Made by a program: the position numbers and the translations under genes
In this document: positions 25,601-64,000 of the stretch, one piece after another
How the letters are laid out: every line of letters begins with the position of its first letter
How positions within the stretch are numbered: position 1 is the stretch's first letter
Origin: a virus
Reading direction: 5' to 3' (one strand)
Virus record (IMG/VR): IMGVR_UViG_3300047388_000220
Coordinates: 4,975-68,974 of that record
Length of the DNA: 64,000 nucleotides
The notes under the pieces: generated by a model
What the model saw: only the letters and a program-made list of their open reading frames with translations
The model's database searches: none
Told to the model about the DNA's origin: nothing

Positions 25601-26475
25601 AAGGGAGTTGCCCCCGAGCAAGATTGCGCACCATACGCCTGAATGTTGTATACCTGCCCACCTTTGTCGTAAACGGCTGCGACGGCATAGGAAGCGCCAA
25701 CGCATCCGGTCAGCGAACCGCAATTGGTGTTACCAGCTCCCGCTGTGTAACTGTTCGCCGTAAGGTCGCCTGCCAGGTCTGTAGTTACGTCGGGATGGCC
25801 TTGGATCGTCGGCTGCGTGCCCCCTAAAGGATAAAAGCCAAGATCGTACTGAGTAGAAGGAATAACGTTTCCGTTCCCTCCTGGAGTCGTCAAGAGCACA
25901 TATTCAGATGTGGGTCCATCCCATTTGTAACTGTCGATCGGAACAGTTCGCTGATCGACAATCGTCACATTTGGGCTGCCATGTGCCGCCAGGATCATCG
26001 CCGTCGTTCCGCCAAGCCGGCCCCAGTCCGGTGTCAGGATGACTTGATAAGCCATGCCCTGGGCGAAGTTGATCGCCTCCTGGAGTCCCGCGGTCGCAGA
26101 CTGGATCGTGAAGTTTGAATGCGGGTTGACTGTGGTCACGGTGATCGAACAGCCCGATCCGCTCACTCGTACCGCCGTGGGTGTCACGATCTCGGTATTC
26201 GATGGCGTATTGTCCTTGATCGTGATCGGTGTGCCGACGGCGAAAACTGGCGACAGGACGAGGCCAGACGCAGATACCGTGCAGAATGACGGTACCGACC
26301 ATGAAAACTGCCCTGTATTGCCTTGGGGGACCTGCCACTGACCAAAATTCGAGGCGTACAGCAGGCCCGAGAAATTAGCCGGCCCGAGTTGAGGCTGCCC
26401 GGGTGGTCCTCCCTGGGCAAAGCTCGAGTGAGCCAAGCTCAGACCTAACCAGATGATGAGAAAGAGTCGTTTCAT
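22681..26475 (-). CDS. Signal-peptide-bearing tailspike-like protein with pectate-lyase-like beta-helix (1264 aa)
   Basis: MKRLFLIIWLGLSLAHSSFA|Q; VYNIQAYGA...DSTAAIQAAIDA...VIFPAGKW (Pectate_lyase_3-type N-cap); later GxGY repeats. Confidence 0.75.
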   Translation of the reverse strand: MKRLFLIIWLGLSLAHSSFAQGGPPGQPQLGPANFSGLLYASNFGQWQVPQGNTGQFSWSVPSFCTVSASGLVLSPVFAVGTPITIKDNTPSNTEIVTPTAVRVSGSGCSITVTTVNPHSNFTIQSATAGLQEAINFAQGMAYQVILTPDWGRLGGTTAMILAAHGSPNVTIVDQRTVPIDSYKWDGPTSEYVLLTTPGGNGNVIPSTQYDLGFYPLGGTQPTIQGHPDVTTDLAGDLTANSYTAGAGNTNCGSLTGCVGASYAVAAVYDKGGQVYNIQAYGAQSCSGATPFDSTAAIQAAIDASGGSPVIFPAGKWCISAPLMYYTRPPTNGTYSRGPIFQGAGHGKTQLLMLSSFTVPTSVTFQGATAYPAPSMIDVQGVITAADAPHFQMDGRIEGFEMTPYGCETNPTASEPGCAYVAAPAWTWNIYNGISAISVEGSWKVAILSNTIKYMSGDGIIMPSRLDLSSNGDLTGGDGIRIDGDYIQFNKGWGANLHGSQTTFGGDLSNIVTYNSLGGVRWTGAPTNTMYNNSIALNGCGQPVSLANAVSELNGTSFASQATCSSNPLGPGVWIGRGDGPGAAGPYNYIIAKTAFDSNAAASIIMSNVTNVNTWSNTNFVHTSGGYTFNTSWPGPTPYAPHVQYVDGTTAGINITHTNDYFRGDFFADAAYPTASSDDLPNASLDPTNSFVDLSYPNHTAVQAMQNEALHVSSFGNYTAYAQGAGAIFGAPTFSSLGGGQVAIASFPLSHQGYGYLAAPGITIVGGDAAWLKPTLVTLTQTNGVLNVPSGCTITQAGGPYTYPPLTSVQDTQGGTGSGGAFTVHLTAGVPDSCTVTSGGSGYSTKVIGGVAPTCLTHPVATATATLGIRNTRITTAGNYGAWTPGSTPPGGVTATFVDSTGSGAACTPVLTPTNIGSISVPNVVWGVMRCTIRDNEHGSNYSFSPTMTYNCVGGCVTPATGTAQVDGMLAPTLTVSNAGSCDANTQVWAVATNPQIPATTPGGDYIRDQGDIITQPSGPTFADQLTLDTVHKDLNLLRVSGLLATYCGVLVNGLPTAACTTRVYKSDDGTNKQYFEINTTGTGDTLLNHGAGALAAQSMTLGTGDGTNGVQIEVGGTVQWNWDSSGDFLPNTANTTGTLGTTAKPIPGIYIGTQGSGTGRITGTFTAARVFTLQDATGTFAFTSQLTPIRSGTWSISSATSVAVTFSSAMGSTPTSCSVTPSASAATTGTPFATALGTTGFTVNVPTSGTLAGTYQCVIDNAN

Positions 26476-26489
26476 GCTATGCTTAGCCC

Positions 26490-27047
26490 ATGCCTAAACA
26501 ACCAAAGTATAGTTTGGTTCCATCGTGCGACGGAGCGTGCTACATCATCGGGTCCGACGCGAGCATCCATAGGATCAGAGAAATCAAAACTTGCCCTTCT
26601 AGCAACAAAAGATACAACGTGTTCAATTTCTTTGGTCCGGACGGAAGGAAAACCCCGCGCTTTGTTCACCATCTTGTCGCTGAGTGCTTTCTTGGGCCTA
26701 AGCCTGAAGGACTCCAAATCAACCACAAGGACGGCAACCGTTTCAACAATGCCGCAGATAACTTGGAATACGTGACTCCAAAGGAAAACACGCAGCATGC
26801 GATCCGTCTTGGATTGCGTGAACCTAAAACCGCAGAGCACATGAAGAAGATGCATAAAGCATGGAAAGGCAAGCGGCATTTCGCTCCTATCCGCAAGTTT
26901 ACGGACGAACAGGCCTTGAACATCATCGCGGCGTTTCGATCTGGAAGAACAATGACGGCAATTGGTCAAGAGTTTGGGTGCTCCCATAGCTCTGTTAATC
27001 GCATCGTGAACGGAAAGATCGTCTACCAGTATCTTGATCGAAGCTAA
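26490..27047 (+). CDS. HNH homing endonuclease (NUMOD4/HNH_3-like, C-terminal HTH), antisense to the late operon
   Basis: VHHLVAECFLGPKPEGLQINHKDGNRFNNAADNLEYVTPKENTQHA; TGcTATGCT promoter 6 nt before the ATG. Confidence 0.9.
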   Translation: MPKQPKYSLVPSCDGACYIIGSDASIHRIREIKTCPSSNKRYNVFNFFGPDGRKTPRFVHHLVAECFLGPKPEGLQINHKDGNRFNNAADNLEYVTPKENTQHAIRLGLREPKTAEHMKKMHKAWKGKRHFAPIRKFTDEQALNIIAAFRSGRTMTAIGQEFGCSHSSVNRIVNGKIVYQYLDRS

Positions 27048-27787
27048 GGCACAGTCACTGCGCTCCAGACGTTGGTGCTTCCGCATACGTAGAGCACGGT
27101 GCTCGCGCTCACCGCCGACGTATTCACGTCGAGAGATCCGACCGTGCAGTTAGCCGATGGCACGCCCGCGGTTGCGGTGATGGTGACGCCGGCCCCGACA
27201 CTGCCAGATGCGAGCGCCGGCGTTGTCCCGGTATAAGTTGCAAGCGTGGCCGTGCGCGCATCGAGAATCGACGTATTCGCGCCCGCGATGGCCGCCGTGA
27301 CCATCGCTGTCGTGCCTCCCATCGTCTGCCAGTCGGGAGTCAGAACCACCACAGCCCTCGAAACGCCAGCCCAATTCAGCGCCTCCTGGAGTCCAAGAGT
27401 GCCGGATTGCAGGTAGTACGTCACGTGCGTGTGGGTTGCAGGCAGGCCCACCGAGCAGCCGGCGCCGACATAGCTTGCGATGCTGGGCGTCACCGTCTCC
27501 GTGTTGGCCGGCGTCCCGATGTCGACAATCGTGATCGGCGCGCGTGTCGAGAATAGCGGAAAGACAACCCCGCCCGAGGTTCCATAGCACTGCCCGGGAT
27601 TGTCCCACCTGGTTCCCGACGGCGTGGGCGCAATCGTCCAGTGCGCAAAGTTCGATGCATACAAAAGCCCGGCCACATCTGCATCACCGTTGGCCTGGCT
27701 GGTAACAGATGCGGTCGGGCTCGTGGTTTGGCCTGCAATTGCAAGTGGCAGAGCCAGAAATACAGCGAGTAACGCGAGTTTTTTCAT
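27044..27787 (-). CDS. Signal-peptide-bearing protein with the shared N-terminal domain (247 aa)
   Basis: AGGAG RBS; MKKLALLAVFLALPLAIAG|Q; GLLYASNF...GLQEALN domain; C-terminal GVPSANCTVGSL...LYVC...NVW fibre-tip motif. Confidence 0.75.
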   Translation of the reverse strand: MKKLALLAVFLALPLAIAGQTTSPTASVTSQANGDADVAGLLYASNFAHWTIAPTPSGTRWDNPGQCYGTSGGVVFPLFSTRAPITIVDIGTPANTETVTPSIASYVGAGCSVGLPATHTHVTYYLQSGTLGLQEALNWAGVSRAVVVLTPDWQTMGGTTAMVTAAIAGANTSILDARTATLATYTGTTPALASGSVGAGVTITATAGVPSANCTVGSLDVNTSAVSASTVLYVCGSTNVWSAVTVP

Positions 27788-40933: not shown

Positions 40934-41065
40934 ATGAAAAACATCTGTAAACAATGCAAAAGAAAAATCGAGCGTCGGACCACCTGGCAGAAGTACTGCT
41001 CCCCCAGGTGTCGGACCAGAGCGGCCCGGGGCAACATTGGCCCAGGTAAGGCGAGGGCGAAATGA
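40934..41065 (+). CDS. Small zinc-finger protein (43 aa, MKNICKQCKRKIERRTTWQKYCSPRCR...)
   Basis: Manual translation; GGAG RBS; ATGA-coupled to the HNH gene; TAGAAT -10 box at 40914-40919. Confidence 0.6.
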   Translation: MKNICKQCKRKIERRTTWQKYCSPRCRTRAARGNIGPGKARAK

Positions 41066-41553
41066 AACAGATTCCACTGACTAAAAACCAGTTCACTCGG
41101 GTCGATGATGGTGATTTCAACGATTTATCTGCTCGCCAGTGGTGCGCTACATGGACGTCTGGCGGATTCTACGCCATGAGAATGACGGAGGGGAGTCACG
41201 CAACGAGGCAGCGAATATTCATGCACCGTCATATTTTAGGGTTGCCAATAGTTTTCGATGGTCGCGTTGCTGACCACATCAACGGGGATACTCTCGACAA
41301 TCAAAGAGGAAATCTCAGAATCGCGACAGCACGAGAGAATCTACTCAATCAGCGCGCGAGAATGGGAACTATCACAGGCATTAAAGGCGTCGGCTATGAC
41401 CGGCAACGTGATCGGCTGGAAGTAAAAATCACGCTACCGAACGGAAAACATCTGCGCATCGCTAGATTCCTGCCTTCCCAACTAGAAGAGGCGAAACAGT
41501 GCTACCGAGATGCCGCGATGCGGTATTACGGCGAATTTGCGAGGTTCGAATAA
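41062..41553 (+). CDS. HNH endonuclease with AP2-like C-terminus
   Basis: IPLTKN...MHRHIL...DHINGDTLDNQRGNLR; TGIKGV...YYGEFA. Confidence 0.9.
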   Translation: MKQIPLTKNQFTRVDDGDFNDLSARQWCATWTSGGFYAMRMTEGSHATRQRIFMHRHILGLPIVFDGRVADHINGDTLDNQRGNLRIATARENLLNQRARMGTITGIKGVGYDRQRDRLEVKITLPNGKHLRIARFLPSQLEEAKQCYRDAAMRYYGEFARFE

Positions 41554-51550: not shown

Positions 51551-51600
51551 GTGGTATGCTAAAGGGCATCAATCGAACGAGTCTTAGGAGGACTCGCCCA

Positions 51601-52329
51601 ATGGTCACTCTGAGTGGACAGAGCGTGATGCCCTCTCCTGAAAACATACCATACGGATTTTGTCACTGCGACTGTGGGCAGAAAACAACGGTGCCCACAG
51701 AAACCAATCGGTATAAAGGATGGACTAAAGGTGTTCCCCTTCTATTCCTGAACGGGCATTGTAATCGAATTACTCCTGTATTTGAGGCTGTTCAGCCGTT
51801 CAAGATTGACGGGGAACTGTGCAATTTCATCCCACTATCTAAGGGTCTCATCACCATCGTGGACGCCACTTTGTACCCATTCCTTATGCGATGGAAATGG
51901 TGCGCCAAGCAGTCAGCCACAGGCAAACCTTTTTACGCAATTCGCAATCCTGACCGAAGAATCGGAGAAACAAAAGTAGTCCGCATGCACCGCGTTGTTG
52001 CCGGGATTGAGGACGATTCTATCTTTGTAGATCATCGCTTTCATAACACCCTTGACAATCGAGCTTCGCAATTGCGCACGTGCACCGTGCGCGAAAACAG
52101 CACGAATATGCTCAAGCACAACGACAATTCAACAGGCTACAAGGGTGTGACTTTTGATAAAAGGCGCGGCAAATACGCGGCTCAGATTAGCTCGGCAGGC
52201 GTGTATTACTTCCTTGGCTATTTCGATTCACCCCTAAAAGCCGCTCTCGCTTATGACGCAGCGGCCATTCGGCTGCATGGAGAGTTCGCGCATCTCAATT
52301 TCCCGAACAGAACGGAGCATGTGGCATGA
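51601..52329 (+). CDS. HNH-AP2 homing endonuclease between groES and groEL
   Basis: IPYGFCHCDCG; MHRVV...VDHRFHNTLDNRASQLR; TGYKGV...AALAYDAAAIRLHGEFAHLNF; start uncertain (51601 has an AGGAGG RBS). Confidence 0.9.
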   Translation: MVTLSGQSVMPSPENIPYGFCHCDCGQKTTVPTETNRYKGWTKGVPLLFLNGHCNRITPVFEAVQPFKIDGELCNFIPLSKGLITIVDATLYPFLMRWKWCAKQSATGKPFYAIRNPDRRIGETKVVRMHRVVAGIEDDSIFVDHRFHNTLDNRASQLRTCTVRENSTNMLKHNDNSTGYKGVTFDKRRGKYAAQISSAGVYYFLGYFDSPLKAALAYDAAAIRLHGEFAHLNFPNRTEHVA

Positions 52330-53927
52330 GCAGGCAAACGCTAAGCGGCAAAGAGTTACGATCCAAACTCCTCGAAGGTGTGAACATCCTTGCAAGCGCG
52401 GTAATTGCGACTTTGGGGCCGAAGGGGCGGACGGTGATCCTCGAACGTGACGCAAGGTGGCCGCCTGCGGTGACGAAGGATGGCGTGACGGTCAGTAAAG
52501 AGGTCCGCGACTTGGCCTGCCCCTACGCCAACGCAGGCGCGCATCTGATCCGCGAAGCCGCATCGAAGACGTCAGATGATTCGGGGGATGGGACCACAAC
52601 GTCTACCCTGTTGGCTCAAGTGATCTTCCAAAAGGGCATCGAGGCACTCGACGCCGGGGCCAACCCGGTCGCCTTGAATCGCGGCATCGCAGCGGCGGTC
52701 GCTGTCGTCGTGGAGCACATCAAGGCGATTGCGCAACCAGTTCAGGACGACGAGACTATCGCCCGCGTGGGAACTATCGCCTCAAACGGCGACCGCTCCA
52801 TCGGTGAACTGATCGCCCTGGCCATGAAGCGGGTAGGCCGCGACGGAGTGATCACTATCGCTGAATCCTCCGACGCCGAGACCACGCTCCAGATCGTCGA
52901 GGGGATGCAGATCGACCGCGGCTGGCTGGCCTACCCATTCATCACGGATCCGGAGCGGCTCGAAGCGACCCTCCACGAGCCCTACATCCTACTCACCGAG
53001 CGCAAACTGTTTACCATGACTCCGGAGATTGACACCGTACTCGCCCAGGTGGGGCAGGCAGGCAAGCCGGTGCTGATCGTGGCCGGCGACTACGACCAGC
53101 CATTCGTTGTGAGCCTGATCCACAACAAGCAGCTTGGCGTGCTGCACTCCCTGCCCGTCAAAGCGCCGGCATTCGGAGACCTGCGACGGGCCACGCTTGA
53201 GGATATGGCGACCGTTACCGGAGCCTACGCCTTCACCGAGGACTGCGGGCGACCGCTGTCGAGCGTCACCATGGCCGACCTGGGGCGGGCGGTGCGCGTG
53301 ACCTGCGGGCAGAATCATACCACCATCGCCGGCGGATATGGCGACGAGCATGCCAAGGAATCGCGCATGACGCTGCTGCGGTCGCTGATTGAGGCGACAG
53401 AGAATGACCTCGATAAAGAGCGTCTACGGCAGCGCCTGGCGCGGCTGGCGTCCGGTGTAGCTGTGATCCGGGTGGGAGCTGTGACCGAGGGAGAGATGCG
53501 GGAACGGCGGGACCGCGTTGAGGATGCGGTCTGCGCGACCAGGGCGGCTGTTGAGGAGGGAATAGTGCCGGGCGGGGGAAAGGCGCTGCTGTGCCAGCAA
53601 AGCGACCTCGATATATTCAAGGACAAGTTTAGCGGCGACGAGTTGGCCGGAGTTAGGATCATTCAACAGGCTCTTGAATACCCCGCACGGCAGATTGCGC
53701 TCAATGCTGGACTTGACGCGAACATGATAATCACTAAATATGCGCGCGGAACAGGGCCTATCAACTGGGGATTCAACGCAGCCACGGAAACCTGGGAAGA
53801 CTTGATTCAAACCGGCGTGATCGACCCCGCCAAGGTCGTCCGCTGCGCGCTGCAGAACGCCGCCAGCGTGGCAGCGCTGCTCCTGACGACAGAGTGCATG
53901 GTCGCGGAAATTCGGGAGAAGAAGTGA
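52326..53927 (+). CDS. groEL: Chaperonin GroEL (divergent, no GGM tail)
   Basis: TLGPKGRTV; TKDGVTV; GDGTTT; KAPAFGD; EDAVCATRAAVEEGIVPGGG; IDPAKVVRCALQNAASVA. Confidence 0.97.
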   Translation: MSRQTLSGKELRSKLLEGVNILASAVIATLGPKGRTVILERDARWPPAVTKDGVTVSKEVRDLACPYANAGAHLIREAASKTSDDSGDGTTTSTLLAQVIFQKGIEALDAGANPVALNRGIAAAVAVVVEHIKAIAQPVQDDETIARVGTIASNGDRSIGELIALAMKRVGRDGVITIAESSDAETTLQIVEGMQIDRGWLAYPFITDPERLEATLHEPYILLTERKLFTMTPEIDTVLAQVGQAGKPVLIVAGDYDQPFVVSLIHNKQLGVLHSLPVKAPAFGDLRRATLEDMATVTGAYAFTEDCGRPLSSVTMADLGRAVRVTCGQNHTTIAGGYGDEHAKESRMTLLRSLIEATENDLDKERLRQRLARLASGVAVIRVGAVTEGEMRERRDRVEDAVCATRAAVEEGIVPGGGKALLCQQSDLDIFKDKFSGDELAGVRIIQQALEYPARQIALNAGLDANMIITKYARGTGPINWGFNAATETWEDLIQTGVIDPAKVVRCALQNAASVAALLLTTECMVAEIREKK

Positions 53928-57524: not shown

Positions 57525-60500
57525 TTACGCTCCGCCTCCGCCGGTTGCCGGTGCGGGCGCCTGGTCGGCCTGCCCCATGGCCTTGTCAAAGGCTGCCTGC
57601 ATCTCGTCGCGCCTCCGGTCATCCATGATTTTATCGATGTCTCGCTCGTGGCGGGCGAGAATTGGCTCAATCGCTTCCCGCTCGTCGGCGCTCGCCTTCT
57701 GCCATACGTTGAGCATCTGCTCGATATGGCCATCCGCCGCCAAGCGGTTGAACGCGCGCGCGATCGGAACCTCGTCCGATTCCCGCTCCGCCCGGTTCAC
57801 ATCGCGGTCCGTGACCTTGCCCTCGTCGAGAAACCTGTCGATCAGTTTCTGGTCGATGTCATTGGTGCGGTACATGCGGACGATGGCGTCCATGGCTTTG
57901 TAGTGAGCATCCTGCTCCGCCGTCTTCGTCCCGGGCGGGCGGTTCTCCATGGAATACTCCCGCGCCGCATTCATGGCCGGCGAGTTCTGAATGTAGCTCG
58001 GGGCCCGCTGGAACCCCAGTTGGCCGAGAGCCATGTCGCCGGGGTGCTTCATCGCCTCCTGGAGCATCGAGCCGAGGCTATCCTCGGCACCGCGCTGCTC
58101 GAGTAGTTTGGCCGCACTTGAGAACGAGAACGGAATAAGTTGCTTGCCAGCCCACTCCGCCACTTCGCCAATCTGCTGGAACGCGGTATCGTCCTTGTGC
58201 CGGATCTCGGTCCCGTAGAAGTCCTTGTTCTGGAGCATCTCGGAGGTAGCCTCCCAGAGCGGGCCGAGCTTGTTGGCGACCGTGGTCAGTGGGCTGTGGC
58301 TGAAGGCGAACACATCTTTCATGTACCCCGGGATGTTGAGATAGGTTCCGTCTGTATTCTTGAGATAGAAATAGTCTTTATACGTCTTGGGGCCCTCTCC
58401 GGTGCGCAGGTAGTTATAGCCTGCCCCGATGTATCCAACAGCCATCGGAAGCGCCAGAGCGAACGCCAGAGCCGGCGTAAGGCGTGGTTTCTTGCCCTGG
58501 AGGACACTGCCGGCGCCGCGGGCCAGTCCCTTCGATGCTTCGAACGCTTCCCGGTAACTGCCATAATTCCAGCCGACCGAGCGGGTTGCGACCTGGGCCA
58601 GATCGCGGACCGCCTTATTCCAGAACAGATTCTCGTAAACCATCTGGCCGGCGCGGTTGTCTACCGAGTCCCATGCTTCATCGAGCCTTCCACGCAACTG
58701 CTCGTGCGTGATCCGGCCCTTGTCGGCCTCGTCGATGATGTCGTGCGCCATCCCGTAGAAGATGCCGAACTTCATCCGTGGCACATAGTATTCCATCACC
58801 GGTGAGATCAGCCCATGGAGCACGGCGCCGGGGGCCTGCGACAGCCCCTTGAGGATAGCGCCATTGCGGAACGAGTTTACAGCCTTACGGAATGGATGGA
58901 TGGCGACCGTGTTCATCTTGGCCCGGCCGCCGGCGATGGCTACCGCTTCCGCCTCGCGCGCGAGTTTAGCGTACTTGCCTGGGTCAAGGTATTCCTGCAT
59001 CAGTCGGTGGCCGTTGCGGACCGTGTTGAAGATCGAGAGCGGAAGCAGGGCCACCCGGCTCAGCGACATGCCAGCCTTTACTGGCTTGCCCTCGCTCAGT
59101 TGCTGGAGACCGAGGGCGACGTCTGACGCCACGCCAACGACCGAGATAGTCGTCGCGTGGAATGCGCTGATCCCCAACTGGAGCGCGTTCATGTTGTCAT
59201 TCAGCCAGCGCAAGGTGTCGTAGACGCTCGACTTGCCGGCCATGCCGCGGGAAACGTAGTTGTTGAATACCTTGGCCGCCTCCGCCTGCGCGAAGTAATA
59301 GCCTCGAATTGTCATTGCCTCGTGTGTGGCGTCCTCTATGTCCTCAGAGAACGCACCCGGATACTTACGCTTGCCGCCTGGGTAGGTCAGCGGCTGGGTC
59401 ACATCCGCGAGCTTATCTTCGTCGAGAACAGTTTCGCGCCCGTAGACGGTGGAAATTCGGTCGTCGAGCTGAGTCCAGCCCTCCGGCTTTTTGGCTCCGA
59501 TTCTGACAAACCGCGCCGTGCCGGCCTGCTTCATGACATCCAGCGTCTGGTGCGCCATTAGGAATTGGGCCATCTCGGCGTACTTCATCAGGAAGGAATC
59601 AACCGGATTCCAGCTTTTCGGCACGAATCCGAGGTCTAGCCCATCTTGCATGGTCGGGATGGTGCGCTTCTTGAGGAATGAGGCTTGGCCGGCCAGGGGC
59701 CGCTTACCGGTGAGCAAGCCCTTGATGTGCGCCGAGACGGTTGAGGGCCGCTCCCAGATGTGGGGGAAGTAGTTCTCGATGTAGTTTTGAAGAACCTCGG
59801 GCTTGAGCTTCTGTAGCTCGTCACGGATTGAATCGAATGCCGCCCTGAAGACATTGGCTAGGGTGACATCTGACGGGCTCAGGCGAGACAGGTCGCCACT
59901 CTCGACGGCATTCCAGAAGCGCTTTGATTCATCGTGGCTCCTGGTCGTCCAGCGCTTCGAGGCATCGCTCAGCTTGTGCACCGCGATCGCTACGCGCCGG
60001 TCCATCTCGCCGCGGGTCTGGCGCATCATGGCTTTCTGCTCGCTCTTGTCGGTCGGCTCGTCCGCTACCCAGTCAACCATGCGCTTCGAAACGTCAGGGA
60101 ACAGGCGCGCGAATACCGCGGGGTTGGCGAATCCGAAGGCGCTGAGAGTGGCGTCTAGGTCTGCGCCGGTACGGGTTCCGGAAGTGGCTCGCTTGCTGGG
60201 GAGGTCTTCTTTTTCTCCTCCGCCAGTACCTGATAAGCCTTTTCGATCCGGCCGTGTCCCGGCCTCGGGGTTATTATCATGTCTTTCTGGTCCCACTTGA
60301 TTTTCGGTATCTCCATGACCGCTCCTCGTTTCTCTGATTACATCTGCTGCCAACTTGGCGAGGTTATCGGCGGCCTGCCCATGTTCCGTGACGAGCCGGG
60401 CGAACTCGCCGGGAACGTGCGCCGCGCGGCGCTGCTCGATGGCGGTCTGAGCGGCTGGTATCTCTTCGGTTTTCGGCGTGGCCTTCGCTCGCGCGGTCGC

Positions 60501-63500
60501 GGAGAATGATGGCTTCGCGGGCGCTGGCTTCTTTTCGGGTAGCGACAAAAGGGTGTACTCGCCAAAAGCAGCCATACGCAAGTTCTCTTGCGTTCCCGCG
60601 CCATTGGCCTTTCGGAAGTCCACTGTGGGGAGCTTGCCCCTTGAAACGGTGAGCGTGTACGTTTCGCCGTCGGTCAGATAACTACCAGGCGGCGCTTTGT
60701 CTACGCGCACCCGCATCCCTGTTTGGAAGTCGGCGGGCCTGATTGGCTTCTCTGCTTGCGGCGCAGGCGCCTTTTCCGGTTGAGTCTCTACGCGCCCGGC
60801 GCTGCTGATACGCATACCCGGATACTTCTCGGCCAGCAACTGCTCAGCGTGGCGACGATTCTCGGCCTCGATTTGGACAGTCTTCGGATGCGGATCGCCC
60901 GCGTACTTCGAGACTTCTGCCTCGTAAGTCTGCAGGGTCGGCTTGGCAGTCAAAGCCTTCCCCTTGAGCTGAACCTCCTCCTTCGTCCCATCCTTCTTCG
61001 AGATGGTCACGGAGTTGACGGTGAACGTCTTGCCGTCGGCCTCAGTCATGCCGGTGTAACGCTTAGCCTCGTCCGGCTTGACGTAGGCGACCGTGGCGTG
61101 AGGCTTGTATTCAGGGAAGTTGCGATCGACAAACAACCCGTGCTTGTCGAGTTCCTTCTCCATGCGGCGCAGGTCGGCCGACTCTACAGGGACGATGATC
61201 GGCGCAGCTCCGTCTGAATGCTCGCTTGGTGGGAATGATGCCGTCTTGCCGAGCGTCGCCTCAAACGGGGCCTGCTTTTCGAGGTACGCGCGGATTCCGG
61301 CTGTGTCGTTGCCGTCGATTCCATACCGCACAGTGATGTGGGCATCGTCGATCAGGCCCTCTCCCATGAGGTCGGCTGGGTCAATCGCCTTTCGGAGCGC
61401 GGCCAGGGCCTTGCCTGCGTCGCTACCAGGAGGAATATCAGCCTGCGTTGAACCATGAGCATGTTTGCCTGGTACTTTGGCATTTACACGTTCCTTACTC
61501 TCGGGTAGATTTGGTTTGTGGACTCCTACCCCTGCACTAACTGCGGTACCCCCGTTCTCCGGAAGCCCTCTCACCGGCAAAGGTCGCCCAACGTCTTTTG
61601 CAGTCACTTGTGCTATAGCCGCCACAATGCGGTCGGCTATATCCATCCCCACGGGTACAGATACTTTAAGATCAACGGCAGGAATTTTGCCGAGCACCGA
61701 CTCGTCATGGAGAAGCACTTGGGCAGACGACTTGAGCCGGGCGAGGTTGTCCACCATATCGACGGGGACAAGCTTAACAACAGCATCGCGAATCTTGAGA
61801 TCATGGAGTTGAGAGATCACATAGTCCATCACAAGCCGTTGAGTTGGGACATCGAACTCGCGAAGACTCTTCTCCGAAGAGGCGACAGCATGGAAAGCGT
61901 CGCGCGCCTCCTCGGGATTCACTACTCCTCCATCAGCACCGCGCTCAAGAGTAGAGGCATTACGCTGGACATGCTCCGCCCCAGAAGGACCTGGAAGAGC
62001 CTTTGATTCTGGCTTCTTTACTTCTTCTTTTTGTTGAGCATCATGCGCTTGCCCGGGCGGTCCGGCTTCGCTGGCGCCTGCTCTGGCAGGTCCATTCCCT
62101 TGCTGCTCTGGTTCCACTCGTCCACTTTCCCCTGGCCGCCCAGCGCTTCCTTCCCTGCCGGGCTGTTGCCCCATCTCATCTGGCGTTTTGATTGGAACGG
62201 CATTTTCTTTTTCTCCTTGTCCTGGTCGATTGTCTGCAACTGTACCGGCAGGCTGCTCTGCGCTGATCCGCTGTTCATCGGGCTTTTGCTCCTTTGCGAG
62301 AGTGCCGTCGAGATCCACATACAAGGCCTTCCCCGCCGGTACGGCCGGCATTTCAAACGGCTTGTCGCTGTTTGTCGGGACGTTGACTTCATTGTCGAGC
62401 AGGCCGCCGAAGTCGTGACCCTTGACGTTCGTCACCGGCAGGTCGCCAAGCCCGTTCGCCTTGAGCCATTCAGCCACCTGAGGATCGGCGGCGCGCGCGG
62501 TGAATATCTTGACCGGCGTTCCCTTGGCGACCGCCTCTTTGATCTGAGCAACACGCTGCGGGAGAGGGGCTCCGAGTGGGGGAGCGGCCTCGGCCGGCTT
62601 CAGGTCACTCCCCTTGACAGTCACCGTCCCATTGGGCGTCTGCACGCTCCAGCGCCCGCCCTGCGAGAAGTTAGGATTCCCGCCCTGGACGGTGCCTGCG
62701 GTGCCGTCGGGCAGGGTTACGGCGGTGCCCTTGGTGAGCTTGGGCACCATCTGTGCACCAATTGGCGTCATGCCGGGCATCGCTGGAACCTGGGGCGCGG
62801 CTGGCTTCTTGGTAGGTCGCTCCTGGACCTTATCGGTCCATAGCCGGTCGCCGAATATCAGCGAAGCGTCGATGTCCACGCTCTTGCCAACTATCGATGG
62901 ATCGACGTCGCCGGGAACGATGATCCGCTCAGTTTTTCCGTTGGGAGTGCGGATCTCCATGATTCTGCTAATCGAAGGCTTCGCAGTTCCAGCCTTGATC
63001 TCGTCAGGTCGCGTGCTATCGGCATACGCGGTCTGCTTTTCTGAGACACTGAGAACCTCGCCATTCAGTGGAAAGTGGCCTTCCCGCTTCTTGGCTGGTG
63101 CCGCCTGCGCGGCTTTCAGTTTCGCCTCGATCTGCGCGCCGAGCTTGTCTACCGTTTTCTGATCCCCCGCCGCCTCCGCCTCTTTCTGCTTCGCGTAGAG
63201 GTCGTCCGTCTCCTTCATCGCGTCGGCCACCGCCGGGGAGGGAACGACCTGCATCTCCGAGACCTGGTTCGGGTCTCCCGGCTTGCCCGTCTGGACGCCG
63301 TACTGCGGGATATTCAGCCCGTTACTGTCGATCTTGTCTTTCGAGACGACGGGGAGCTGGCTCTCTACCGCCTGCTGCAGCGCCGGTACAGCGTCCGGGG
63401 AGGGAGCAACCACCCGCGCGGCGTTGATGTCGGTGATCGTCTCAGGCGCCTTGCCGCGGTCGTCCTTGTTCTCGATCGAGTCCTCAGACTTTACCCTGGG

Positions 63501-64000
63501 GCCGACGACGCTCGCGCCCGGGACTCCGGCGATGACCGCTTTCGCCATCTGCTCAAATTTGGCTTTCTGTGCCTCCGCCGATTTTCGTAACTCCTCGGGG
63601 TCGGTGCTCGCCTGTACGGTAGGGCGCTGGCCCTCTGGCGGCTGCCCTGAGGCGCCTGGCGCTCCGGGTGATGGTTTCCCCTGCCCCGCTGCCGCGACGT
63701 CTGCCATGGGCTTCCCCGTGAGCGCGGCGGTGGCTGCAGCGAGCGGGCCGGTCGCGGGGGTAGCCGGAGTGGCGGGCTTGGGAGCGTTCGTATTGTCTAT
63801 AGCTTCCTGGAGAAGCTCAGACAGAGCCACATGGCGGCCAGACAATTCCTCTGCCGCTGGGATATTGCCAGCCTTCTCCGTGCGGTCCGCTTCCTCGGCA
63901 ATCGTATCGAGCAGGCTACGCAGTTGCTCGGGCGAGGCCCCCTCAACCCGGGGTCGCATATTCTCGACGATGTGGTCGAGCAGACTCTTCGGTTGCGCTT
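57525..64000 (-). CDS. Giant polyvalent (putative internal virion / DNA ejection) protein; 5' end beyond the window
   Basis: Frame open to the window edge (AQPKSLLDHIVENM...); RelA/SpoT-like, permuted HAD-like and 2H phosphoesterase modules; helical C-terminal region with NKDFYGTEI motif as in phage ejection proteins. Confidence 0.8.
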   Translation of the reverse strand, partial: AQPKSLLDHIVENMRPRVEGASPEQLRSLLDTIAEEADRTEKAGNIPAAEELSGRHVALSELLQEAIDNTNAPKPATPATPATGPLAAATAALTGKPMADVAAAGQGKPSPGAPGASGQPPEGQRPTVQASTDPEELRKSAEAQKAKFEQMAKAVIAGVPGASVVGPRVKSEDSIENKDDRGKAPETITDINAARVVAPSPDAVPALQQAVESQLPVVSKDKIDSNGLNIPQYGVQTGKPGDPNQVSEMQVVPSPAVADAMKETDDLYAKQKEAEAAGDQKTVDKLGAQIEAKLKAAQAAPAKKREGHFPLNGEVLSVSEKQTAYADSTRPDEIKAGTAKPSISRIMEIRTPNGKTERIIVPGDVDPSIVGKSVDIDASLIFGDRLWTDKVQERPTKKPAAPQVPAMPGMTPIGAQMVPKLTKGTAVTLPDGTAGTVQGGNPNFSQGGRWSVQTPNGTVTVKGSDLKPAEAAPPLGAPLPQRVAQIKEAVAKGTPVKIFTARAADPQVAEWLKANGLGDLPVTNVKGHDFGGLLDNEVNVPTNSDKPFEMPAVPAGKALYVDLDGTLAKEQKPDEQRISAEQPAGTVADNRPGQGEKENAVPIKTPDEMGQQPGREGSAGRPGESGRVEPEQQGNGPARAGASEAGPPGQAHDAQQKEEVKKPESKALPGPSGAEHVQRNASTLERGADGGVVNPEEARDAFHAVASSEKSLREFDVPTQRLVMDYVISQLHDLKIRDAVVKLVPVDMVDNLARLKSSAQVLLHDESVLGKIPAVDLKVSVPVGMDIADRIVAAIAQVTAKDVGRPLPVRGLPENGGTAVSAGVGVHKPNLPESKERVNAKVPGKHAHGSTQADIPPGSDAGKALAALRKAIDPADLMGEGLIDDAHITVRYGIDGNDTAGIRAYLEKQAPFEATLGKTASFPPSEHSDGAAPIIVPVESADLRRMEKELDKHGLFVDRNFPEYKPHATVAYVKPDEAKRYTGMTEADGKTFTVNSVTISKKDGTKEEVQLKGKALTAKPTLQTYEAEVSKYAGDPHPKTVQIEAENRRHAEQLLAEKYPGMRISSAGRVETQPEKAPAPQAEKPIRPADFQTGMRVRVDKAPPGSYLTDGETYTLTVSRGKLPTVDFRKANGAGTQENLRMAAFGEYTLLSLPEKKPAPAKPSFSATARAKATPKTEEIPAAQTAIEQRRAAHVPGEFARLVTEHGQAADNLAKLAADVIRETRSGHGDTENQVGPERHDNNPEAGTRPDRKGLSGTGGGEKEDLPSKRATSGTRTGADLDATLSAFGFANPAVFARLFPDVSKRMVDWVADEPTDKSEQKAMMRQTRGEMDRRVAIAVHKLSDASKRWTTRSHDESKRFWNAVESGDLSRLSPSDVTLANVFRAAFDSIRDELQKLKPEVLQNYIENYFPHIWERPSTVSAHIKGLLTGKRPLAGQASFLKKRTIPTMQDGLDLGFVPKSWNPVDSFLMKYAEMAQFLMAHQTLDVMKQAGTARFVRIGAKKPEGWTQLDDRISTVYGRETVLDEDKLADVTQPLTYPGGKRKYPGAFSEDIEDATHEAMTIRGYYFAQAEAAKVFNNYVSRGMAGKSSVYDTLRWLNDNMNALQLGISAFHATTISVVGVASDVALGLQQLSEGKPVKAGMSLSRVALLPLSIFNTVRNGHRLMQEYLDPGKYAKLAREAEAVAIAGGRAKMNTVAIHPFRKAVNSFRNGAILKGLSQAPGAVLHGLISPVMEYYVPRMKFGIFYGMAHDIIDEADKGRITHEQLRGRLDEAWDSVDNRAGQMVYENLFWNKAVRDLAQVATRSVGWNYGSYREAFEASKGLARGAGSVLQGKKPRLTPALAFALALPMAVGYIGAGYNYLRTGEGPKTYKDYFYLKNTDGTYLNIPGYMKDVFAFSHSPLTTVANKLGPLWEATSEMLQNKDFYGTEIRHKDDTAFQQIGEVAEWAGKQLIPFSFSSAAKLLEQRGAEDSLGSMLQEAMKHPGDMALGQLGFQRAPSYIQNSPAMNAAREYSMENRPPGTKTAEQDAHYKAMDAIVRMYRTNDIDQKLIDRFLDEGKVTDRDVNRAERESDEVPIARAFNRLAADGHIEQMLNVWQKASADEREAIEPILARHERDIDKIMDDRRRDEMQAAFDKAMGQADQAPAPATGGGGA
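60155..60316 (-). CDS. Nested 53-aa ORF in the +1 frame of the giant gene
   Basis: GAGGAG-N5-ATG; MEIPKIKWDQKDMIITPRPGHGRIEKAYQVLAEEKKKTSPASEPLPEPVPAQT. Confidence 0.5.
   Translation of the reverse strand: MEIPKIKWDQKDMIITPRPGHGRIEKAYQVLAEEKKKTSPASEPLPEPVPAQT
61483..61511 (+). promoter_or_regulatory. Antisense sigma70 promoter inside the giant gene
   Basis: TTTACA-N17-TAGATT, 6 nt before the GTG of the nested HNH. Confidence 0.65.
61518..62006 (+). CDS. HNH endonuclease nested antisense within the giant gene
   Basis: CTNC...FCSHLC zinc finger; EHRLVMEKHLGRRLEPGEVVHHIDGDKLNNSIANLEIM; C-terminal HTH. Confidence 0.88.
   Translation: MDSYPCTNCGTPVLRKPSHRQRSPNVFCSHLCYSRHNAVGYIHPHGYRYFKINGRNFAEHRLVMEKHLGRRLEPGEVVHHIDGDKLNNSIANLEIMELRDHIVHHKPLSWDIELAKTLLRRGDSMESVARLLGIHYSSISTALKSRGITLDMLRPRRTWKSL
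62018..62203 (-). CDS. Nested 61-aa basic protein in the +1 frame of the giant gene
   Basis: AAGGAG RBS; MPFQSKRQMRWGNSPAGKEALGGQGKVDEWNQSSKGMDLPE, resembling small phage MPFKSKAQ-type proteins. Confidence 0.65.
   Translation of the reverse strand: MPFQSKRQMRWGNSPAGKEALGGQGKVDEWNQSSKGMDLPEQAPAKPDRPGKRMMLNKKKK

Follow-up and report, generated by a model that had tools for sequence, protein, structure and literature searches.

How can a homing endonuclease gene lodge inside a protein-coding gene without breaking it, when neither an intron nor an intein is there to take it out again? Such genes are thought to survive within genes only through removal by an intron or intein, or else to sit between genes. 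The question is raised by a 64,000-nucleotide stretch of viral DNA (hereafter the window; bases 4975-68974 of the 68,974-bp linear virus record IMGVR_UViG_3300047388_000220, 58% GC), in which an intact HNH homing-endonuclease gene (61518..62006, + strand) lies antisense within the giant open reading frame (ORF) of a polyvalent-protein gene (57525..63998, - strand; protein P0002). It is very probable, in our judgement, that ribosomes making the giant protein continue without a break through about 180 non-native residues in a linker, that the HNH protein is made from its own promoter on the opposite strand, and that selection removes those HNH-synonymous codons that would read as stops in the host frame.

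The arrangement itself is exact. The giant ORF is free of stops for all of its 2157 codons in the window, where its 5' end is cut by the contig end, and its frame shares the precise codon register of the HNH gene, with P0002 residues 665-827 being the antisense of the HNH codons (61518..62006, - strand), a stop-free reading that matches no family. Both the openness of the minus-strand frame and its register had been pointed out in a preliminary description of the window, and both hold. Because of the register, the host frame is open precisely when the HNH gene contains no TTA, CTA or TCA codon.

Relatives that lack the HNH gene reveal what was inserted. Protein and DNA junction alignments delimit a cassette of about 540 nt, or 180 host codons (61467..62006), which consists of the HNH ORF and 51 nt of 5' flank; low-complexity linker on both sides leaves its borders uncertain by about ±10 nt. 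Immediately next to the cassette is the conserved start of a 2H phosphoesterase module, KHAHGSTQADIPPGSD (61419..61466, - strand), which is kept in six proteins and 14 loci. At the locus L004, where no HNH gene is present, a single uninterrupted ORF (at least 1623 codons) is colinear with the window as far as the linker '...KEEVK'. At the junction, the window reads KEEVKKPE, followed by S and about 180 residues and then by KHAHGSTQADIPP, whereas the insert-less form reads '...KEEVEPKFKHGNTQADIPP'. Six family proteins likewise run '...(K)EEVEPKFKHGNTQADIPP...' in frame, from the linker straight into the 2H module and without the cassette. The same in-frame passage from linker to module was seen at all 14 of the viral loci examined, these being drawn from 17 with a 2H module; L108 was left out because its match begins at query residue 35 near the locus end, as were L111 and L112, which match residues 172-216 only. 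A clean in-frame junction in relatives without the insert, proposed beforehand as a check, was thus found both in proteins and in viral loci. The antisense segment itself occurs in just one of 68 family proteins (P0011), a sporadic distribution that fits what would be expected of a mobile element.

Other searches around the junction returned little. No match to 60500-63000 was found by blastn in the phage collection, tblastn with the junction region matched the 2H domain alone (in two records), and related-locus searches with the C-terminal domain of the giant protein, either as a single protein or as an alignment, recovered L004 only. A metagenome scan with the HNH alignment, using two strict patterns, yielded 11 loci, none of them nested in a giant ORF, and a homologous-protein search with residues 662-845 gave P0071 only (E 7e-3).

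The single family protein with the segment is arranged differently. In P0011 (residues 1071-1252), just the first 17 residues of the 2H module (KYKFGNTQTAIPPSSDAG) are kept; an antisense HNH segment comes next, 39% identical to that of the window, and then unrelated modules. The related HNH of P0011 sits directly after the conserved 2H-start motif, whereas the HNH of the window sits directly before it. The P0011 arrangement may be the trace of recombination at an HNH-induced break. Two candidate signs of insertion were rejected. The conserved coding motif KFKHGNTQADIPP, considered as a general homing target on account of these two positions, is absent from all 150 listed giant proteins with antisense segments and could therefore serve as a target at most for the sub-lineage of the window. 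A target-site duplication was considered as well, but 'PESK' and 'K-E-x-V' at the two ends of the cassette are written in different codons, and AAGTA is all that they have in common in DNA.

Is the open frame a matter of luck? Codon usage was counted in 26 hand-picked ORFs of the window genome, where TTA, CTA and TCA make up 1.58% of 13,136 codons. From this overall usage, the probability of an open frame over 163 codons is 7.4%; it is 2.1% given the 18 Leu and 14 Ser of the HNH protein and the synonymous usage of the genome, and being in register adds a further chance factor of 1/3. The earlier caution that openness of this kind is not rare at high GC was overstated, with a chance of 2-7% here. 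The genome, a 69-kb phage, also provides an internal comparison among its four HNH genes. Two have their neighbours on the opposite strand and contain no in-register antisense stop (0/163 at 61518-62006 and 0/186 at 26490-27047), while the two that are co-oriented with theirs contain 5/164 (41062-41553) and 7/258 (51556-52329). The latter pair, both on the + strand, sit in the + strand replication and recombination block.

Luck becomes much harder to invoke in L005, a locus of only 39% GC that holds the closest relative of the HNH protein (45% identity, E 1e-39). There too the HNH gene lies in register inside a long ORF, of at least 3088 codons and with an LPD23 polyvalent-protein domain, and it has no antisense stop against about 10 expected (P ~5e-5). 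None of its 11 Leu codons is TTA or CTA and none of its 10 Ser codons is TCA, compared with 39% and 36%, respectively, in the host gene. Among HNH relatives more widely, 80 viral loci were reduced to 58 by setting aside 13 duplicates and 9 without a called neighbour on one side, neighbouring genes being called by a simple longest-ORF rule. Where both neighbours were on the opposite strand (n=15), 51 antisense stops were observed and 94 expected (a ratio of 0.54), and seven loci had one stop or none. Where both were co-oriented (n=28), the corresponding figures were 195 and 170 (1.15), with three loci at one stop or none, all of 62-65% GC.

The layout is also widespread in databases. Queried with the antisense peptide, phmmer returned 164 matches at E<=1e-3 among 1.84 billion cluster representatives, including 38 at E<=1e-10, and 150 listed matches, which yielded 154 aligned segments, were analysed further. 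Of these 150 proteins, 120 have at least 1000 residues and 82 at least 2000. Most of the segments (118/154) are internal, with at least 200 residues on both sides; the others lie near the C-terminal end (13), near the N-terminal end (7), in proteins shorter than 300 residues (14) or in some other position (2). The 118 internal segments remain open though they have diverged to 30-45% identity. Among the 19 best giants, Pfam domains specific to polyvalent proteins (ART-PolyVal, LPD1/3/23/38 and ddrB-ParB) occur in ten, seven have no match at all, and none of the 19 has an intein match at E<=1e-5. The surroundings of the segments are typically linker-like in composition, in that, for 90/113 internal cases, the flanks had a lower hydrophobicity than windows drawn at random from the same protein; in the window, the flanks have a hydrophobic fraction of 0.087, against 0.253 for the rest of P0002. 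Four giant database proteins (P0074, P0098, P0103 and P0143) have two separate antisense-HNH segments each.

Which of the two strands is under selection can be read from the columns of this alignment. The 154 segments were aligned to the antisense peptide, and each column was compared with the set of residues that synonymous substitution in the opposing HNH codon can produce. Of 20 near-invariant positions in the HNH protein, 17 have at least 92% of the segments within this set. Opposite H79, the host frame has V in 103 segments and M in 51; opposite H80, V in 119 and M in 35; and opposite H60, V in 80 and M in 71. The asparagines behave likewise, N87 being faced by V or I in 100% of segments, N88 by V in 100 segments and I in 53, and N92 by V in 81 and I in 73. 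Further examples are L93 (K in 70, E in 48 and Q in 36), R70 (S, T, A or P in 99%), G83 (P in 144/154) and C28 (A or T in 92%), as well as C32, which is not among the 20 (A or T in 90%). The three exceptions, L62, M64 and K66, fit conservative HNH replacements (e.g., M/I to H/N/D). Near-equal mixtures of V and M, or of S, T, A and P, are unlike the conservation of a folded domain, and the host-frame segment is therefore best regarded as a shadow cast by an HNH gene kept intact opposite to it. Since the columns vary as synonymous HNH changes predict, selection acts on the HNH strand, together with avoidance of stops. This avoidance recurs, in L005 and in the 154 segments, and appears to be selected, which argues that the open frame of the window is no lucky accident.

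The composition of the segment tells the same strand apart. Across the HNH gene, GC content at third codon positions of the minus frame is 0.52, compared with 0.70-0.75 in the flanking giant ORF, while in the + frame it is 0.74, compared with 0.52 at position 1; this identifies the coding strand under selection as the + strand. Pfam has no match to the host-frame peptide at E<=0.01, and the AlphaFold model of the peptide, built on a 15-sequence alignment, reached a mean predicted local distance difference test score (pLDDT) of 58.2 and a predicted template-modeling score (pTM) of 0.33.

The gene responsible is complete. It starts with GTG and encodes 162 residues that comprise a zinc ribbon, an HNH_3 core and a C-terminal helix-turn-helix, and the Pfam match to HNH_3 covers residues 60-97 (E 2.3e-12, 46.8 bits, cut-off 24.8). 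In PHROGs, 17 of the 19 families matched are labelled HNH or endonuclease, the best being PHROG 59 (E 4.3e-19). The N-terminal CxxC...CxxxC cysteines align with those of the closest relative in L005. The zinc finger-HNH-helix-turn-helix plan that had been proposed for the + strand thus stands, although the helix-turn-helix matches are weak and fall under the Pfam cut-off. In an alignment of 22 HNH homologues, H80, N88 and N92 are invariant and H60 and H79 are conserved in at least 90%; we take these five residues to have catalytic or metal-binding roles. A sequence search of the PDB with the HNH protein gave nothing at E<=0.01. Its AlphaFold model, based on 22 homologues, has a pLDDT of 88.9, and the best structural match is I-HmuI (1u3e; probability 1.00, E 5.7e-3, template-modeling score 0.35). 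We read it as an I-HmuI-like homing-endonuclease gene, whose product would presumably cleave DNA and promote homing.

Immediately ahead of the gene, the promoter-like site TTTACA-N17-TAGATT (61483..61511, + strand) is found exactly as first described, with 6 nt between the end of its -10 box and the GTG. No other promoter-like site occurs on either strand of 60800-62700, where shuffled sequences hold a mean of 0.4. Promoter-like sites within -90..+12 of the HNH start were present at 8/18 antisense-context loci (0.9 expected from random windows) and at 8/30 co-oriented loci (1.5 expected). In the window, as in L012, L053, L074 and L014, 6-7 nt lie between the -10 box and the start codon, so that the transcripts would be leaderless; start-site spacing is the basis on which the HNH transcript is given that name.

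The host gene, for its part, belongs by its relatives' domain content to the polyvalent proteins, in which many unrelated conflict-type domains are joined in one giant phage polypeptide, a class set out in the available text of Iyer et al. 2017 (PMC5512222). Its family comprises 67 database proteins of 1449-3744 residues that have a C-terminal region of about 900 residues in common and varied N-terminal modules, including 2H, GGDEF, ART-PolyVal, ddrB-ParB, RelA/SpoT, SNF2 and methylase; the C-terminal region is 66% identical in L004. Recognizable domains had been described on both sides of the HNH gene, and the family was confirmed on one side. The downstream 2H phosphoesterase domain (60987..61346, - strand; residues 885-1004) matches PF13563 at E 2.4e-9 with both HxT motifs, HITVRYG and HATVAY, intact. 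Upstream, a conserved module (62283..62579, - strand), 44% identical to L004 over residues 474-572, leads into the low-complexity linker that ends KEEVKKPE. The HAD-like label proposed for this side was not confirmed: the module has no Pfam match at E<=0.1 and only a weak PHROG match (phrog_1238, E 8e-5, residues 469-519).

The beginning of the giant gene lies at the other end of the record. A minus-strand ORF of 259 codons that runs off the contig start ('MATAVEEPP'; G000 contig positions 1-779) matches the N-termini of four relatives, and P0002 residues 2-260 align to P0008 residues 253-519, so the whole gene would have about 2,400 codons. When the contig ends are joined directly (63960-64000 on the window side), the two parts of the gene are 1 nt out of frame. 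From the split and the shift together, the record would be a circle opened within the giant gene, either permuted or missing a little sequence. On the same strand downstream of the giant gene are a 254-codon ORF and then the terminase large subunit.

From these elements, a course of events can be proposed. A cassette of about 540 bp, carrying an I-HmuI-like HNH gene and a promoter-like site placed for a leaderless transcript, would insert on the opposite strand and in register into a flexible linker between two modules of a polyvalent protein. Because the HNH gene lacks TTA, CTA and TCA, the complements of which are stops, ribosomes on the giant gene would read through it. The product would gain about 180 non-native residues, placed where the linker meets the 2H module, with no need for an intron, an intein or a translational restart. 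Thereafter, selection on the HNH protein would be joined by selection against synonymous changes that create host-frame stops, because with such a stop the giant protein would be cut short and the terminase gene further along the same strand would probably be expressed less. We infer that the linker is translated and tolerated, that the HNH protein is expressed and active, and that the cassette spreads by homing.

Several other explanations have to be weighed against this one. The segment might be translated and then removed or separated, either by proteolysis at polyvalent linkers or by an unrecognised splicing chemistry. That the cassette sits in a low-complexity linker would suit such a process, as would the fact that HNH genes nested antisense in terminase genes do lie inside inteins (10/12 ORFs). 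However, the search that detects PF14890 at E<=0.001 in those same ten ORFs, and so served as a positive control, found no Hint or Intein_splicing match in P0002 at E<=0.1 in Pfam, no Hint or intein in P0072, P0011 or P0071 at E<=0.001, and none in 19 other giants; Rfam gave no match at E<=1 on either strand of 60500-63000. The lack of any intron or intein signature noticed at the outset is therefore upheld by both databases. The flanks around the HNH gene within the cassette are only about 51 nt and 3 nt long, and because antisense HNH and 5' flank fill the 180-residue gap entirely, a splicing domain could not fit. Pfam also detects no protease domain in P0002, and we consider post-translational removal improbable. 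Still less probable is that two separate proteins are made, expression ending within the cassette (convergent transcription starting at the HNH promoter might cause this) and the part from the 2H module to the C-terminus being translated from an internal start. Shorter relatives do begin near the 2H module (P0023, with the 2H at residues 141-317, and ORFs of 673-933 codons in L096, L101, L105 and L106), and there is an ATG at 'DLMGEG' just ahead of the 2H core. Yet no Shine-Dalgarno-like sequence is visible before that ATG, terminator-like sites number 2 against 1.9 in shuffles, and the upstream part cannot end normally, as no in-frame stop occurs anywhere. Such a model would also offer no reason for selected avoidance of stops.

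Pure chance, whereby the cassette landed in register and happens to avoid the three codons without selection, so that the read-through product might be irrelevant, is about as unlikely as the two-protein model. The figure for the window gene taken by itself would allow for it, and so would the three of 28 co-oriented homologues with one antisense stop or none, all on contigs of 62-65% GC. It is the recurrence that chance does not explain: the same layout at 39% GC in L005, the open internal segments at 30-45% identity, the contrast of none and none with five and seven stops within one genome, and the opposite ratios of observed to expected stops among the 58 loci. True dual coding, with the antisense reading as a functional polyvalent domain that co-evolves with the HNH protein, would account for the presence of the segment in more than 100 giant proteins and for its several predicted helices. 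We find it more doubtful again, as the columns follow the synonymous sets of HNH codons in near-equal mixtures (V/M, S/T/A/P and K/E/Q), and as the lack of a Pfam match, model confidence and host-frame third-position GC all point away from a native domain. Finally, misassembly of two genes through an unrelated HNH fragment, which had been named as something that would undo the case, deserves thought with a metagenome-derived contig whose giant gene is cut by the contig ends. It is, however, scarcely credible. A Logan contig of run X1, from another assembly pipeline and possibly from the same sample, covers 61414-62600 and crosses both junctions with 0 differences; 154 nt of the HNH gene recur unchanged in run X2, which belongs to a second soil study; and the same architecture occurs in L005 and many database proteins.

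Read-through of an antisense cassette under selection is thus the explanation that we favor, and the idea of an in-frame antisense insertion in place of an intron or intein, as originally put forward, gains support from the insert-less junctions and the recurrent avoidance of stops. A number of points nevertheless weigh against it. For the window alone, chance openness of 2-7% at 58% GC is not negligible. The antisense segment is more hydrophobic than the protein average (0.32 versus 0.25), and some of its helices are predicted at pLDDT 70-79, which makes an 'inert floppy linker' an assumption. The template-modeling score against I-HmuI is low, as may be expected of an elongated multi-domain protein. 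The promoter-like site matches at only 9/12 positions, and GTG is a poor leaderless start. The X1 contig possibly comes from the window's own source sample and so would not be independent. Among the database segments, 20/154 lie near a protein end and could be broken or truncated cases. The chief weakness is that the giants came from protein databases, so that host frames broken by a cassette could not be counted in the denominator.

HNH genes also occur antisense in other settings. The second such gene of the window genome, an HNH_3 gene at 26490-27047 (+; Pfam E 1.7e-14), occupies the space between two genes of the minus strand and is covered by a minus-strand 'bridging' ORF (26472-27086, 204 codons), the stop of which overlaps the ATG of the next gene as ATGA (26472-26475); the TAA stop of the HNH gene overlaps the stop codon of the upstream gene. 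In 15 loci chosen for few antisense stops or long open antisense runs, the bridging ORF ended -7..+6 nt from the first start codon of the next minus-strand ORF in eight (L045, L055, L069, L007, L060, L026, L057 and the window). Elsewhere, 12 viral loci have ORFs of 730-964 codons in which the HNH gene is nested antisense and, in every case, in one and the same phase out of register: L044 (356-2632 -, HNH 1732-2262 +), L011, L019, L025, L042, L052, L062, L063, L070, L073, L079 and L083. Ten of these 12 ORFs have Pfam Intein_splicing matches at E<=0.001 around the HNH gene, three of them above the 35.8-bit cut-off, and five of the 12 contain terminase large-subunit domains. Since the Intein_splicing matches flank the nested gene, the middle parts of these inteins would be the reverse of an HNH gene. 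Also in the window is a full-length GroEL-like chaperonin (52326-53927, +; PHROG 5725, E 3.8e-138).

It is conceivable, though we put it forward only tentatively, that being 'translation-transparent' is a design feature of HNH cassettes. With a complementary frame free of stops and a compact leaderless promoter, they could settle backwards anywhere in the late transcription units of a phage, as linkers within ORFs (polyvalent proteins), as the middle filling of inteins (terminase) or, between genes, beneath bridging ORFs that would run from the stop of the upstream gene to the start of the downstream one, the ATGA overlap at 26472-26475 being an example. Translation would remain unbroken in each case, which could protect against polarity, and cutting at module boundaries may drive the shuffling of polyvalent modules.

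If the arrangement is as we read it, it appears to be common, given that such segments occur in over 100 clusters of giant phage proteins. Annotation pipelines will miss HNH genes of this kind and call about 165-180 residues of the giant protein an unknown domain. The column signature of V/M, V/I and K/E/Q offers a simple way to spot 'domains' that shadow genes on the opposite strand. The locus would also be a natural test of how much junk multi-module proteins tolerate, and of whether unbroken translation matters in phage late operons.

How does this arrangement compare with known systems? Free-standing I-HmuI-like HNH genes of phages are alike in family, predicted architecture, own expression signals and sporadic distribution, but they sit between genes, whereas the HNH gene of the window lies inside an ORF that stays in one piece. 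The mobE insertion in nrdA of Aeromonas phage Aeh1, a case associated with Gibb and Edgell (2007), reportedly splits its host gene into two polypeptides; the giant ORF, by contrast, is not divided. Our search found no report of an antisense, in-register HNH gene read through in a polyvalent protein, with most subscription journals lying outside its reach.

Antisense orientation as such has precedents. According to the accessible part of one account, homing-endonuclease genes in nuclear ribosomal DNA group I introns can be encoded opposite to the host gene (PMC9548176), as in the window; there, however, the host is a ribosomal RNA intron that is spliced out, and no host frame has to be kept open. 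Polyvalent proteins as described by Iyer et al. (PMC5512222) resemble P0002 in being giant multi-module hosts with a 2H phosphoesterase, and the modules of its relatives match those described. The antisense HNH segment, which has no Pfam model, is not among the domains in the portions of that article available, nor do these mention homing, antisense, opposite strand or intein.

Closer still are antisense endonuclease genes inside inteins, which include VSR-like genes (Gosselin, Arsenault, Gogarten, bioRxiv 10.1101/2025.01.02.630785) and LAGLIDADG genes (Gorbalenya 1998; Gogarten 2002, as cited in that preprint). They, too, lie on the strand opposite to an uninterrupted host ORF, so that the host frame must stay open. 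In those cases, the intein removes the junk peptide, whereas no splicing domain is present in the window and none could fit. As far as the preprint's available text goes, HNH is given as in-frame only, while the endonuclease of the window is an antisense HNH.

The nearest parallel is the ShiLan domain, or Pacc40 'hidden HNH', inserted in actinophage DNA methylase genes (Arsenault, Gosselin, Gogarten 2025, Genes 16:178, PMC11855218). In the sections of that paper at hand, as in the window, an HNH gene is nested in a stop-free host ORF with no detectable intein or intron and has a sporadic, homing-like distribution, and the non-native host-frame reading is proposed to loop out; the words antisense, anti-sense, opposite and reverse do not appear in them. 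The ShiLan HNH is on the same strand as its host and in another frame, whereas that of the window is on the opposite strand, in codon register and with its own promoter-like site. The hosts differ as well, a methylase in the one case and, in the other, a polyvalent protein with a layout that recurs in more than 100 protein clusters. The locus would thus mark a third route into genes beside the 'hidden HNH' of 2025, and in mirror image: a selfish gene that settles on the other strand and never uses three codons.

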